A stretch of DNA of 32,000 nucleotides from Candidatus Paracaedimonas acanthamoebae (GCA_000743035.1 CP008936.1:750001-782000), one strand, 5' to 3'; counted from the stretch's first letter, positions 12,910-26,019 are shown. Translations and numbers: made by a program. The notes: generated from the letters alone by a model not told the origin.

Positions 12910-12985
12910 GGGGTCATAGCTCAGCTGGGAGAGCGCTACAATGGCATTGTAGAGGTCAGGGGTTCGATCCCCCTTGGCTCCACCA
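12910..12985 (+). tRNA. tRNA-Ala (anticodon GGC), CCA encoded
   Basis: 76-nt cloverleaf folded by hand: acceptor GGGGTCA/TGGCTCC with the G3:U70 Ala identity pair, D arm GCTC-AGCTGGGA-GAGC, anticodon arm CTACA-ATGGCAT-TGTAG (GGC), T arm AGGGG-TTCGATC-CCCCT, then discriminator A and CCA. Confidence 0.95.
12937..12985 (+). repeat. Left copy of 49-nt direct repeat (3' part of tRNA-Ala, att-like)
   Basis: TACAATGGCATTGTAGAGGTCAGGGGTTCGATCCCCCTTGGCTCCACCA recurs at 25971-26019 with 2 mismatches. Confidence 0.9.
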
Positions 12986-13099
12986 TATTTAACTTTGTTT
13001 TTATGAGATTTTTCCTCCATAATATTTATCTTCTGCAAAAATAAAAAAAATGGTTTGTATATGGTTTTATGTGAAGAAGACTTTCCTCTTCTTACAGAA

Positions 13100-13579
13100 T
13101 TATGTTTTTGACGTTCCTATAAATAGGATCACAGAACAAAAGAAAACAAGTAGAGCGGCTACAATAACCAAAGCTGTCTTACTCGTACCACTCTTTTCAA
13201 CCCCTTTAGAGATTTTTCTAGAAGCATGTTTTAAGTAAAGATAATCAGCATACCTCATTACAAAAACTATAAACAAAAGAGGAATACCTATTTCTAACAT
13301 ATTCTCCCAAACACCTAAAGAAAAGTGCCTAACTACCCAATTTGTCAGTTTTCCAGAATAAAGCGAAAACATTCCTACCCCAAGTCCATCCCAATACATA
13401 CGCCGATAAAAGAACCAAATAGGCCAAAATGTTGCCCAATTCCAGTTCCCCTTTTTGCCCGTTTGCTGATATTGATCAAAATAGTCTAAATAATGTTGAG
13501 TTGAAGACGATAATTTATCATCGGTGTCTTTATTTGTTTTAATAAAGTTTAAAAATTGCTCTCTGGTAATATTGATCAT
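13100..13579 (-). CDS. DUF2628-like small membrane protein
   Basis: 159 aa. NWNWATFWPIWFFYRRMYWDG followed by hydrophobic helices matches my memory of the DUF2628 pattern. Confidence 0.65.
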   Translation of the reverse strand: MINITREQFLNFIKTNKDTDDKLSSSTQHYLDYFDQYQQTGKKGNWNWATFWPIWFFYRRMYWDGLGVGMFSLYSGKLTNWVVRHFSLGVWENMLEIGIPLLFIVFVMRYADYLYLKHASRKISKGVEKSGTSKTALVIVAALLVFFCSVILFIGTSKT

Positions 13580-13748
13580 AAAACATACCTTTTTTAAGCG
13601 TCTAAGAAAAAAATAAGTAAATCATCTTTACCCTGTACACCGGCTGAAAGCGAGTCTTAATCCTTCCCCAATTTCTGCAGGTGGGGCATTAGCAGGGATC
13701 TTGACATAAGAACCCGGTCTAATCCCTCATCCTACCTTGCCTTTAGCT

Positions 13749-14043
13749 TCACTTAAGTACTGTATCAGGGGTTTCTTTGCATTTCTTGGCTAATCGGGTA
13801 ACCTCATCAATATGTGCTGGATCTTCAGGATCTGTTACTTCCTTACGCACCTGCAACAATTCTTCAATGATTGCATCCATATCACTGGTATCAAATACTG
13901 AATAATCATGAAGTTCCACTTCTCCTAAATAAGGAAACTCTGGGTTCTTATATCCTTTCACAAGGTAAGATCCATTGTTCTCTCGTGTGGTTCTTTCAAT
14001 CAACTTATCATCCTTAGACTCTAAAATTAATATGGATATTCAT
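13749..14043 (-). pseudogene. Orphan immunity-gene copy (paralog of 14153-14458) with a 1-nt frameshift near its 5' end
   Basis: Its protein aligns with the functional copy: NNGSYLVKGYKNPEFPYLGEVELHDYSVF...MDAIIEELLQVRKEVTDPEDPAHIDEV.RLAKKCKE. The ATG at 14043-14041 corresponds to the paralog's start but is out of frame. The orphan has an A4 run at 14023-14026 where the functional copy has A3. Confidence 0.6.
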
Positions 14044-14124
14044 TTATCCCACCTTATATTTAAATGGCCCAGGATAGGCATTAATTAGATTTTCTTCCTT
14101 ATCCGTGAGGATGTAATAGGGTGA
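14044..14124 (-). pseudogene. Orphan remnant of the toxin C-terminal tip (last ~26 codons)
   Basis: The minus-strand translation SPYYILTDKEENLINAYPGPFKYKVG* aligns with the end of the 2233-aa toxin (SIITILTDAEGNLVNVFPGPLKYMVK*). It is bounded upstream by an in-frame stop and has no start codon. Confidence 0.6.
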
Positions 14125-24031: not shown

Positions 24032-24641
24032 AAAAGTTAAACGGTATTTTAGAATATTTTTATTTACATTTCTTGCTGTGCCTCAAAACCACTCTTTTGC
24101 AAGTAAGCATTGTGATCTAGGAGACATCTATCATCATGGCCCTAAAGTAATTTGTTTAGGGGAGCGGCCTAATTTAAGCTCAGATCAGTTAGACCACTTC
24201 TTTGAAAAACATTTCGATAAGAATGCAAAAATATTAAGTTTAAGGTGCCAAGAAGAATTAACAGATGCTCACTTAAAGTGGTTATCAAAACTACCACAGA
24301 CAGCCACAATTATAGAACTGAACCTTAGCAGGACTAGTATTTCTTATGATGGAATAGTGCACTTATGGAAATCAGAATTTTTGGGTTCCGTTAGAGATGA
24401 GCAACCAATATATGAAAGCTATTATAATACGCCTATATCCGTAGTAAAAGTTGAAATAGGCCACACAAAAGCTCTAAAACAGTATAAAAAGCATTTGAAA
24501 AATGGGAAAAAAATATTTCCCTTACCTTTGCGTAATAAGTTTGAAATCCGCTATGTACACCCAGCAATTGATGTTGAATATAAAGAGATTGGCCTTAAAC
24601 AAATTCTCCTCACTGACCATGGTGAGCCTATTGGAAATTAA
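24024..24641 (+). CDS. Secreted orphan protein with 1-2 LRR-like units
   Basis: 205 aa. Its ATG overlaps the upstream stop by 8 nt (ATGAATAG). Signal-like FRIFLFTFLAVPQNHSFAS. LRR-like ILSLRCQEELTDAHLKWLSKL...IIELNLSRTSISYDGIVHL. Confidence 0.6.
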   Translation: MNRKVKRYFRIFLFTFLAVPQNHSFASKHCDLGDIYHHGPKVICLGERPNLSSDQLDHFFEKHFDKNAKILSLRCQEELTDAHLKWLSKLPQTATIIELNLSRTSISYDGIVHLWKSEFLGSVRDEQPIYESYYNTPISVVKVEIGHTKALKQYKKHLKNGKKIFPLPLRNKFEIRYVHPAIDVEYKEIGLKQILLTDHGEPIGN

Positions 24642-24722
24642 TTGTATTTAAGTTAAAGTAGGAGAAAATAATAAGTGGTACATATTCATAATACACATAG
24701 ATTTCTCTTAACAATTTCATAC

Positions 24723-25852
24723 TTAACGAAATAGCCTCACTTTTAATAAATTGATTTTATCTACTGAATCCCTTATCAATAGTCTTATTTTCTTTTTTAA
24801 GAAGTATTTTAGTACCTCTGCTGCTTCTTTATCCTTTAACTCAAGGCTTATAAAGTTAGGATCTTGCTTATAAAGCTCTTGCGCGTATCTTCTTAAATCA
24901 GCTTCAGTTTAAGTTTTATCGTAAGCATTGCAAGCAAACTTATGGTCTCTTAAGAGAGAGTTGAGCTTTTCTGAAGGTGTGGGTTCTACTCTTACTTGCT
25001 TATCGCTTAAGATCTTTAAACGATGGGCCTTAGCTTCAGCGTGCATTTCACCCCCTAACTGTGCTGCAAGTTCGGGATTTCTGGCTTCAAACTGTCGCCG
25101 CCATTCAAGCTTTGGATCATATTTTACACCTTGATTTTGCTGAGGAACCTCATAAGAAGAGAGTGGTTTCTTAAACTCTTCTCTCTCTGTTGATAGGCGA
25201 ATCCCAATGCTATCAGCTTCATTTTTAGATATTCTTGTGGTGGTTGGGTTGGAAGCATTTTTGATTGAGTACTCTTGTTCAATATACTTTTTTATAAAGC
25301 TTATTATTTTCGGTATCATGTCCTTTCAATAACTCTTTCGTCCTGATATGCTCACTGATACTTCCTTGAGAGATACAGATCTCTTGTTGCTCAGGAACTT
25401 TACCTAAAAAACGCTCTGTAATACTCTGCCACGCTTATTTAGACACAAAGCGGATCGCCTGAAGTTCGTTACTAAGACGACTCAAGGTCTCTTGAAGTTG
25501 AGACTGTCTCCTCTGTTTGATCAAGCTTGGCTTTGATCTTATGCCGATCAATTTCTAAGATGGTTCCTAATATTCCCTTTTTAACTTTGAGACCATTATC
25601 ATTCCTCATGAAGAGGATCCGATCTCTTTATGCAAAGTGCTTCTCTTCTTTTGTAATAATCTTGTCGCCAAAATCATCTTCGTCTTCTTTATGGATGGTA
25701 TAAAGATATTCCTCTTTCGATATCATGTTGCCTTGCTTTAAAAGGTGGCGCGCTTCTTCATTAAGCTTAGCAGTCTCTAGAAGTTTTTTGTAAGTTTTGA
25801 AGGCATGGTACCTAACAATCAAAAAATGGGTTGTATATGGTTTAATAGACAC
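24723..25852 (-). pseudogene. Decayed relaxase/RecD-like helicase (TraA/TraI-type) C-terminal remnant
   Basis: One minus-strand reading frame is broken by in-frame stops at 25628-25630 and 24909-24911 and a frameshift near 25460. The segment ...EEKHFA*RDRILFMRNDNGLKVKKGILGTILEIDRHKIKAKLD resembles the GDRI.F..N...LGV.NG..G.V block of conjugative relaxase-helicases. The catalytic N-terminal part is missing. Confidence 0.45.
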
Positions 25853-25970
25853 AGATTCAGAATGACAATTAAAAACTTTTCGAGAACTAGATATTGATAT
25901 AAGTTATTGATAAATAATTATTTATATAATTTAATAAGTTTTAAGAGAATTATAAATATATGACTTACTT

Positions 25971-26019
25971 TACAATGGCATTGTAGAGGTCAGGGGTTCA
26001 ATCCCCCTTGGTTCCACCA
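25971..26019 (+). repeat. Right copy of 49-nt direct repeat: tRNA-Ala 3' fragment (att-like island boundary)
   Basis: TACAATGGCATTGTAGAGGTCAGGGGTTCAATCCCCCTTGGTTCCACCA equals tRNA positions 28-76 with 2 mismatches. The 5' half of a tRNA is absent. Confidence 0.9.

Follow-up and report, generated by a model that had tools for sequence, protein, structure and literature searches.

Between a tRNA-Ala(GGC) gene and a displaced copy of its 3' part, the genome of Candidatus Paracaedimonas acanthamoebae (GCA_000743035.1, CP008936.1:750001-782000) contains some 13 kb of DNA (12986-25970) that we read, with a probability of roughly 0.85, as the decayed remnant of an integrative element, either conjugative or mobilisable. 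Positions are counted along the whole stretch of 32,000 nt that was analysed, hereafter the window. Ca. Paracaedimonas (Paracaedibacter) acanthamoebae is an Acanthamoeba endosymbiont of the Holosporales. What is left of the element is a non-autonomous island flanked by attachment (att) sites, comparable to a cis-mobilisable element (CIME) and made up of a toxin locus, genes for two secreted proteins with signal-peptide-like N-termini, and conjugation debris. The initial annotation of this DNA, made from the sequence alone, had proposed a 13 kb island inserted at the 3' end of the tRNA gene with a tRNA-derived repeat at both ends, and this proposal is substantiated by an empty site in a related genome and by relatives of the element that have kept their integrase.

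The insertion at tRNA-Ala(GGC)

The features that delimit the island are the following:
12910..12985 (+), tRNA-Ala(GGC), intact, the integration target; its 3' 49 nt (12937-12985) are the attL core
25971..26019 (+), attR core, a displaced 49-nt copy of tRNA-Ala positions 28-76 with 2 substitutions; its flank after the CCA end (AATATA...) agrees with the empty site of locus L001
Repaired attB, as expected after excision: the tRNA followed by AATATATCATT

Exactly one tRNA gene is found in the window (ARAGORN; Rfam RF00005, 60.4 bits), and its positions 28-76, which begin at the second base of the anticodon stem and run through CCA, are repeated at 25971-26019 in the same orientation with 47 of 49 bases identical. 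The two substitutions of the distal copy relative to the tRNA are a G to A change in the T-loop and a C to T change at acceptor position 69, on the 3' strand. None of 100 dinucleotide-preserving shuffles of the window gives a 49-mer match of this kind, and the repeat had been described initially with coordinates and substitutions that proved exact when examined with ARAGORN, Rfam, a repeat search and these shuffles. Since the DNA upstream of 25971 does not align with the 5' part of the tRNA, and neither ARAGORN nor Rfam calls a second tRNA or pseudo-tRNA there, the distal copy is a 3' fragment and not a longer degenerate tRNA. The interval thus has the 3' portion of a tRNA gene repeated at both of its ends, with the intact gene at one of them, which is how a tRNA island is recognised.

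Scanning species-representative genomes with the GltX protein of the window identified two close relatives, Caedibacter sp. 38-128 (locus L001, GltX 93% identical) and Caedibacter sp. 37-49 (L002, 86%); an exact look-up of the GltX protein itself gave no record. The tRNA-Ala genes of both relatives are identical to the complete copy of the window, which makes 25971-26019 the copy that has diverged. An empty site, which the initial annotation had named as a check, was found in Caedibacter sp. 38-128, where the porin gene comes immediately after the tRNA-Ala gene, with gltX next. Window 8994-12992 aligns with L001 4966-8964 and window 25971-29730 with L001 8909-12718, the alignments breaking at 12992 and 25971. 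Furthermore, the sequence that follows the CCA end in L001 (AATATAAT...) agrees with the flank of the second copy in the window (AATATATC...) and not with that of the first. As this site is unoccupied, the segment 12986-25970 is an insertion with its breakpoints at the repeat.

In Caedibacter sp. 37-49, neither a second, more diverged copy of the core nor an att repeat was found beside the tRNA-Ala gene. The same 3' flank carries about 2 kb of different DNA there (L002 6444-8387), with three small open reading frames (ORFs) and a partial extra porin paralogue, and the 3' flank of this tRNA gene seems to be a hotspot for change.

Attachment-site arms, integrase and conjugation genes

Inside the two cores lie the arms of the former attP and what appears to be the very start of the integrase gene:
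12986..13097 (+), P' arm of the former attP, non-coding; repeat D5 at 13045-13070, a candidate arm-type integrase-binding site
25807..25970 (+), P arm of the former attP; second copy of D5 at 25821-25846
25751..25806 (-), putative tyrosine integrase 5' stub; start codon 25806-25804, ~18 codons (~55 nt), one frameshift
Double-heptamer motif as a search string: ATGGKTTNTATATGGTTT

The 26-nt sequence AAAAAATGGTTTGTATATGGTTTTAT (13045-13070) recurs as AAAAAATGGGTTGTATATGGTTTAAT at 25821-25846 with 24 of 26 positions matching. Exactly two copies of this repeat family, D5, are present in the window, one per arm: the left copy is separated from the first core by 60 nt, the right copy from the second core by 125 nt. 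In a circular attP they would flank the core on both sides. The agreement is beyond chance, as none of 300 Markov simulations and no control pair drawn from the real sequence exceeds 20/26. The motif consists of two heptamers 11 bp apart, whose position is conserved and whose sequence varies between relatives of the integrase.

A metagenome collection scanned with the central 20 nt of D5 yielded seven loci, two of which, L021 and L023, both from one metagenome, were informative. The other five (L022 and L024-L027) were taken as chance matches, having no integrase match or tRNA gene and only the motif stretch in common with the window. In L023, a tRNA-Ala(GGC) gene is followed by the D5 motif ~70 nt later; the segment of L023 with the tRNA-Ala and the P' arm, 10542-10726, has 78.6% identity to window 12908-13085, and its D5 stretch is conserved exactly. 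L021 presents the order integrase, D5, core: it encodes on its minus strand a 1305-aa TraA (MobA_MobL, AAA_30 and SH3_13 domains) and a 389-aa tyrosine integrase (Phage_integrase, E 2e-30; Arm-DNA-bind_3, E 5e-14; a SAM-like domain), the motif lies ~30 nt upstream of the integrase start, and the tRNA-Ala 3' core comes ~125 nt further on, at the end of the contig. This part, L021 12814-13006, is 73.6% identical to window 25819-26011. The P arm of L021 also contains, at 12905-12925 and ~50 nt upstream of the real core, an imperfect second anticodon stem-loop core (ATACAATGCATTGTAGA), which may be an extra core-type site or a remnant.

The arrangement of an integrase, a conserved 23-nt double heptamer, ~125 nt and the 49-nt tRNA-Ala fragment is characteristic of the intact relatives. 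In L028 and L029, whose integrase is 76% identical to that of L021, ATGGTTTATATATGGTTT is followed after ~125 nt by the same 49-nt fragment, with the same starting base as in the window. In L030 (integrase 65% identical) the heptamers read AGGTTT...AGGTTT and the fragment resembles the 3' end of tRNA-Thr(GGT), and in L031 and L032 (62%) they read AGGTCT...AGGTCT beside the 3' end of another tRNA; the layout of integrase, motif and core is conserved in L028, L029, L030 and L031. Judging from its domains, the family is one of P4-type tyrosine integrases with an arm-binding N-terminal domain, and its members have switched among tRNA targets. Because the heptamers are fixed in position yet differ with the integrase, they behave as expected of arm-type sites, and they are good candidates for the sites read by the Arm-DNA-bind domain of the enzyme. 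Both arms of attP, with these candidate sites, appear to be still intact in the window. The tyrosine integrase invoked initially as the agent of insertion is thus represented in the intact relatives by a 389-aa Phage_integrase/Arm-DNA-bind_3 protein encoded beside the same 49-nt fragment.

In the intact relatives L021, L028 and L030 the cognate integrase gene adjoins the att site; the window has the stub alone. Its translation, MPSKLTK followed by a 1-nt frameshift and LLETAKLNEEA, is to be compared with MPSFKITKRFLDSAAIKEK of L030 and MAIKLTKRLLDTAELKNKA of L028. The stub lines up collinearly with the beginning of the integrase gene in L021, L028 and L030, and its distance to D5 is the same as in L028 and L030, L021 having a 19-nt insert. 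Homology to the integrase fades near 25750, where a TraA-like reading starts. Elsewhere in the island no integrase was detected by Pfam searches of the ORFs, by a six-frame Pfam scan of the non-ORF DNA or by tblastn with the L021 integrase, the last being a check proposed at the outset; the early statement that no ORF of the island has integrase features therefore holds, with the refinement that a frameshifted stub of ~55 nt persists. When all ORFs of L021 and L023 were compared with the window by tblastn, nothing significant was retrieved save an Xer-like gene outside the island, which is the sole, weak match of the L021 integrase (31640-31933, E 0.02). This gene (31640-32000, plus strand, running off the right end) encodes an Xer-like tyrosine recombinase that is conserved in L001 (15177-16112, 311 aa) and in L002; it is a housekeeping gene and not the integrase of the island.

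Two pieces of conjugation genes are recognisable between the arms:
21382..21756 (+), type IV coupling protein (TraD/VirD4) 3' fragment, last ~100-125 codons; TrwB_AAD_bind profile 288-387 of 387, E 2.7e-27
25475..25745 (-), putative internal fragment of a Ti-type TraA relaxase/helicase, RecD-like SH3 region, interrupted by a stop codon; tblastn, weak Pfam SH3_13 match

As the initial annotation had noted, the conjugation genes are fragments, namely the last ~100 aa of the coupling protein and an internal piece of TraA. The former has 86% nucleotide identity to the coupling-protein gene of Caedibacter sp. 38-128. With the latter, tblastn against plasmids retrieved 52 records, with traA annotated under 8 of the 12 rows listed and a best E value of 4e-5, and the piece aligns to residues 674-742 of the L021 TraA (E 0.006). 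No mating-pair-formation genes of a type IV secretion system (T4SS) were found by Pfam in the ORFs or the non-ORF DNA of 12986-25970. On the metagenomic contig L015, an F-type TraG_N gene lies beside coupling-protein fragments.

Broken coupling-protein genes are recurrent in these bacteria, as seen in L012, L013 and L014 of Caedibacter sp. 38-128 and in L010 and L015, and the list of coupling-protein homologues is dominated by short fragments of 73-206 aa. In Caedibacter sp. 38-128, an IS21 element truncates one copy, after which come the gene of a secreted 704-aa protein and then a second coupling-protein tail of 90 aa.

The following history would account for these features. A P4-type tyrosine integrase would have inserted the element into tRNA-Ala(GGC) by recombining a tRNA-like attP core, from the anticodon stem to the CCA end, with the gene, leaving the intact tRNA at attL and the 49-nt fragment at attR. 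By analogy with the intact relatives, the original right end would have read traA (minus strand), integrase (minus strand), double heptamer, ~125 nt and core. As L021 has the integrase and traA genes side by side on the minus strand, just one internal deletion of ~4 kb could explain the junction seen in the window: it would have fused codon ~20 of the integrase to the middle of traA, with removal of the recombinase and the relaxase domain. At the left, the element would have lost all the DNA that separated the P' arm from the last ~100 codons of the coupling protein, the space being held now by an 8.2-kb toxin/immunity/DUF2628 module, which itself would have undergone a swap of its tip and immunity cassette.

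A long identity block that starts in the anticodon stem is usually associated with a crossover in the anticodon loop. Williams is said to have described in 2002 (Nucleic Acids Res) such an anticodon-loop sublocation, in which the identity block extends from the anticodon stem as far as CCA. If the crossover took place in the anticodon loop, the 3' part of 25971-26019 is the displaced native end of the tRNA and its substitutions arose after insertion; if it took place further 3', the two substitutions arrived with the element.

Several points weigh against this reading or restrict it. An empty site in one relative fits a site that was never occupied and one from which the element was precisely excised equally well. 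The island has no foreign signature, its GC content of 38.2% lying between those of the flanks (37.2% and 39.0%), and its third-position GC and codon-usage distances overlap those of the housekeeping genes; the compositional comparison with the flanks recommended in the initial annotation is thus uninformative, which is unsurprising if the donors were other low-GC amoeba symbionts. The integrase stub is short and is identified largely by its collinearity and its position beside the conserved arm: its nucleotide similarity is modest, 15-20 of 2000 shuffles reaching the score obtained against L021 and L030 (p about 0.01), and is not significant in the shuffles against L028. The assignment to TraA corresponds to ~30% identity over ~95 residues, and since the piece is only distantly related to the TraA of L021, the conjugation module of the window may differ from that of the intact relatives. 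With no F-type T4SS gene in the island, both the conjugative and the mobilisable description fit. Finally, which of the two decay events came first cannot be recovered, and the toxin module may have come by insertion plus deletion or by replacement recombination, as both fit.

The toxin module and rival readings

The module extends from 13098 to about 21300 on the minus strand (8.2 kb) and comprises, in the direction of transcription:
21162..21300 (-), conserved upstream (promoter) region of the toxin gene and 5' boundary of the module; ~135-150 nt common to L016 and L017, then an abrupt stop
14460..21161 (-), CdiA-like polymorphic toxin, full length, 2233 aa; Pfam PF04830 (1.2e-6), PF04829 (1.7e-4)
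14153..14458 (-), predicted cognate immunity gene, 101 aa; directly after the toxin stop, positioned as CdiI in L016; no family match
13749..14003 (-), orphan immunity paralogue, 84 aa; direct repeat D1, 271 nt with 76% identity to 14171-14441
13580..13749 (-), CdiI-family immunity gene 3' fragment; Pfam PF07262, profile 125-155 of 155 at 13631-13720, E 0.0032
13100..13579 (-), DUF2628 membrane protein gene, the last gene of the module; PF10947, E 5e-5

The predicted toxin is 100% identical to IM40_03990, recorded at NCBI for Candidatus Paracaedimonas (Paracaedibacter) acanthamoebae, and a promoter-like site is predicted upstream of its gene at 21263-21235. Its DUF637 and PT-VENN regions are encoded at 15504-16001 and 15249-15347, the VENN motif is at aa 1967, and the variable tip, aa 2090-2233, corresponds to 14463-14894. 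Homologues of 2160-2366 aa have a common body and different tips (EC869-like, LHH, some without a family match), and from their length the copy of the window, with its 2233 aa, is full length. DUF637, a PT-VENN boundary, a polymorphic C-terminal tip and an adjacent ORF of immunity size are all present. On the other hand, no N-terminal TPS domain was detected as a Haemagg_act match in the full protein or in residues 1-500 at E values up to 5, the FHA/haemagglutinin-repeat signal is below threshold (E 0.015), no CdiB/TpsB gene occurs among the window proteins scanned or beside the homologues in L016, L017 and L019, and neither the tip nor the immunity gene has a match in Pfam, NCBIfam or the PDB sequences. 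The protein thus appears CdiA-like in its C-terminal architecture only, and the locus does not look like a canonical system of contact-dependent growth inhibition (CDI). The immunity role of the 101-aa ORF is predicted from its position. Together with L016, L017 and L019, the window toxin makes up a family of ~2200-aa CdiA-like proteins with swappable tips in Holosporales-type symbionts.

The boundaries of the module emerge from comparison with L016, a plasmid-like metagenomic locus with ParA, resolvase and toxin-antitoxin genes, in which a toxin with an EC869-type tip is followed by CdiI and then by DUF2628, with no genes belonging to integrative and conjugative elements (ICEs). Window 14893-21296 is 80% identical to L016, and 13098-13749, covering the DUF2628 gene and the CdiI 3' end, is 82% identical. 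Nucleotide homology of the toxin to L016 and L017 ends at 14893/14905, the tip diverging after aa 2089, and the intervening 1.1 kb, with tip residues 2090-2233 and the two small ORFs, stands where L016 has its EC869-like tip and most of CdiI. Homology to the CdiI 3' end of L016 then runs on from the CdiI fragment into the DUF2628 gene, which has 82% nucleotide identity to the gene placed after the toxin/immunity pair in L016. These junctions indicate that a toxin-tip and immunity cassette was swapped, leaving the CdiI fragment behind. In the more distant relative L017, the toxin gene is chromosomal and near the orthologue of the kinase gene at 101-4096 of the window, with an autotransporter between them; its body has 77-79% nucleotide identity to that of the window, versus 67-69% for the kinase orthologue. 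A 5' boundary ~140 nt upstream of the start codon is common to the copies of the window, L016 and L017, and the toxin block is accordingly a separate, independently mobile unit.

These comparisons bear on the reading that the toxin operon is the original cargo of the element, kept by selection while the mobility genes decayed, as the initial annotation had suggested in speaking of selective retention. The toxin, immunity and secreted-protein genes are indeed full length while the mobility genes are fragments, and toxin/immunity loci can stabilise the DNA that carries them. Among the genes first described as intact, the toxin gene and that of a 517-aa secreted protein are confirmed as full length by their homologues. 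However, the toxin block has the same 5' boundary in three unrelated contexts, the other two without ICE genes nearby, and L017 has it elsewhere on the chromosome, with a higher similarity to the window than its neighbouring orthologue shows. In the window, it abuts a truncated coupling-protein gene and a bare P' arm, which is a pattern of replacement, and the ends of the intact relatives L021, L023 and L028 have no such toxin. We consider retention rather unlikely, and the idea of selectively kept cargo gives way to that of an operon which is itself mobile elsewhere. Wedged between a bare P' arm and a coupling-protein gene without its first three quarters, the module probably replaced the left part of the element as a secondary arrival.

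The island might also be still movable, its excision and transfer being provided in trans by a cognate integrase and the conjugation machine of a related element, whether that element resides in the same cell or in a symbiont living alongside. Although only debris is left of the genes between them, both cores (47/49) and both arm motifs (24/26) are nearly intact. The integrases form a large family that is widespread among Alphaproteobacteria, Holosporales included, and amoeba symbionts exchange DNA, with tRNA-flanked ICEs reported in this genome (PMC5751055). Against this, the window has no integrase of the L021 family besides the Xer-like gene at its right end; no origin of transfer (oriT) or relaxase remains, and one heptamer has a substitution and attR has two. 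Moreover, the top 120 homologues of the L021 integrase include none from an NCBI genome record at more than ~55% identity, though the toxin of this organism is recorded at NCBI, so a cognate copy in the sequenced genome is unlikely. Present mobility is on balance quite improbable. In the same doubtful register, the island could be imagined as a still-competent hitch-hiker, moved between amoeba symbionts by an incoming integrase donor, with the module punishing cells that lose it; separately, if a ~2200-aa toxin family without TPS domain or CdiB is really exported, its export route would be new.

Last, we give practically no credence to the 49-nt copy being a local tRNA duplication or part of a longer pseudogene with ancestral genes in between, for which the bare existence of the repeat and a GC content that does not mark the interval as foreign could be invoked, since it is refuted by the L001 empty site with its breakpoints exactly at the repeat and by the same fragment, with the same starting base, beside integrases in unrelated metagenomic contigs, while no tRNA 5' part or second tRNA call accompanies the copy.

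Known elements and remaining genes

The decayed element resembles tRNA islands and ICEs with P4-type (DUF4102/Arm-DNA-bind_3) integrases in its 49-nt block, with the intact tRNA at one end and the 3' fragment at the other, and in its intact relatives, where Arm-DNA-bind_3, SAM-like and catalytic domains are encoded beside attP and the core is flanked on each side by direct-repeat arm motifs. It differs from them in that the integrase here is a stub of ~55 nt, and in that integrases of the L021/L028 family are at the tRNA-fragment end (attR) and not beside the intact tRNA.

A CIME is an att-flanked derivative of an ICE without recombination and conjugation modules. The concept reportedly comes from work on ICESt1 and ICESt3 of Streptococcus thermophilus. 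The island is alike in having the attL and attR of a family of ICEs or integrative and mobilisable elements, with both cores and arms conserved relative to L021 and L023, in the apparent loss of integrase, relaxase and transfer genes by deletion, and in its kept cargo. A CIME would be mobilised by a related incoming ICE, in cis through accretion or by excision in trans; no cognate integrase was seen by tblastn of the window or among the best 120 homologues. CIMEs are listed as a category in ICEberg 2.0 (PMC6323972).

The Rickettsiales amplified genetic element (RAGE) of Rickettsia and Orientia is described as occurring in degraded copies with tRNA insertion, an integrase, Ti-type TraA, a coupling protein and CDI-like cargo (PMC9111745, PMC10732058). 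The island is like it in its obligate intracellular alphaproteobacterial host, its tRNA target, its integrase at one end, its fragments of a putative Ti-type TraA and of a coupling protein, its decay and its CDI-like toxin cargo; unlike it, the host belongs to the Holosporales and not to the Rickettsiales, and no F-type T4SS gene survives in the island. By analogy, the island recalls RAGE, a likeness drawn from the tRNA target, integrase, Ti-type TraA, coupling protein and decay.

CdiA/CdiI systems and polymorphic toxins have a C-terminal tip demarcated by PT-VENN (Aoki 2010 and Zhang 2011/2012, cited in PMC9111745). The toxin locus agrees with these in DUF637, PT-VENN, a variable tip, a predicted immunity gene directly downstream, an orphan immunity paralogue and a displaced CdiI leftover. 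It departs from them in that no TPS domain was detected, no CdiB/TpsB gene is found in the 32-kb window or beside the homologues, and tip and immunity gene match no known family.

A partial tra system and tRNA-flanked ICEs had already been reported for this genome by Wang and Wu 2017 (PMC5751055), who do not describe the island at tRNA-Ala(GGC). Current understanding is thus left unchanged. The island provides a clean, fully bounded case of a conjugative element that would be dying in an obligate intracellular symbiont, in which att sites and arm motifs outlive the genes, the integrase would have gone by a single internal deletion, and a separately mobile toxin module would fill the vacated space. 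It also defines, for a widespread alphaproteobacterial family of P4-type integrases, a conserved attP of ~300 bp (double heptamer, core, double heptamer), which helps to annotate islands in Holosporales and Rickettsiales genomes.

Between the two conjugation-gene fragments, the right-hand part of the island contains four further genes or ORFs:
21752..22336 (+), gene of a 194-aa coiled-coil/transmembrane protein; 83% nucleotide identity to L012 3442-4000
22478..24031 (+), 517-aa protein with a signal-peptide-like N-terminus, full length; no known family (Pfam, NCBIfam)
24024..24641 (+), 205-aa protein with a signal-peptide-like N-terminus; from the ORF list, no family match (Pfam, NCBIfam)
24909..25319 (-), 136-aa ORF, putative gene; from the ORF list, no family match (Pfam, NCBIfam)

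In L012 of Caedibacter sp. 38-128, the homologue of the 194-aa protein is encoded beside a coupling-protein gene, an IS21 element and a methylase. The 517-aa protein has 18 relatives among 1.84 billion representative proteins, the full-length ones being of 524-559 aa, and the family has two invariant motifs, S-x-C-F-x-x-S-E-Q and S-P-R-H-I-C-K-x-C-R-G, which are deaminase-like in look. A deaminase was suspected from these motifs and is unsupported, the AlphaFold model (pLDDT 72.9, pTM 0.75) having no PDB match at E <= 0.001 with Foldseek. The 136-aa ORF was considered as a possible TraA C-terminus, for which no support was found.

Outside the island, a second and unbounded indel is seen at 7164-8994, where 1.8 kb of the window is absent from Caedibacter sp. 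38-128, which has 87 bp instead; this segment contains four small ORFs, one of which encodes a leucine-rich-repeat protein (8537-8851). Downstream of it, two tandem paralogous acyltransferase-3 genes (9059-11569, plus strand; 414 and 416 aa) resemble each other over 94 nt with 77% identity and are both present in the relatives too. Near the left end of the window, the gene at 101-4096 (plus strand) encodes a 1331-aa protein with a eukaryote-type kinase domain (Pfam Pkinase, E 5.7e-13).

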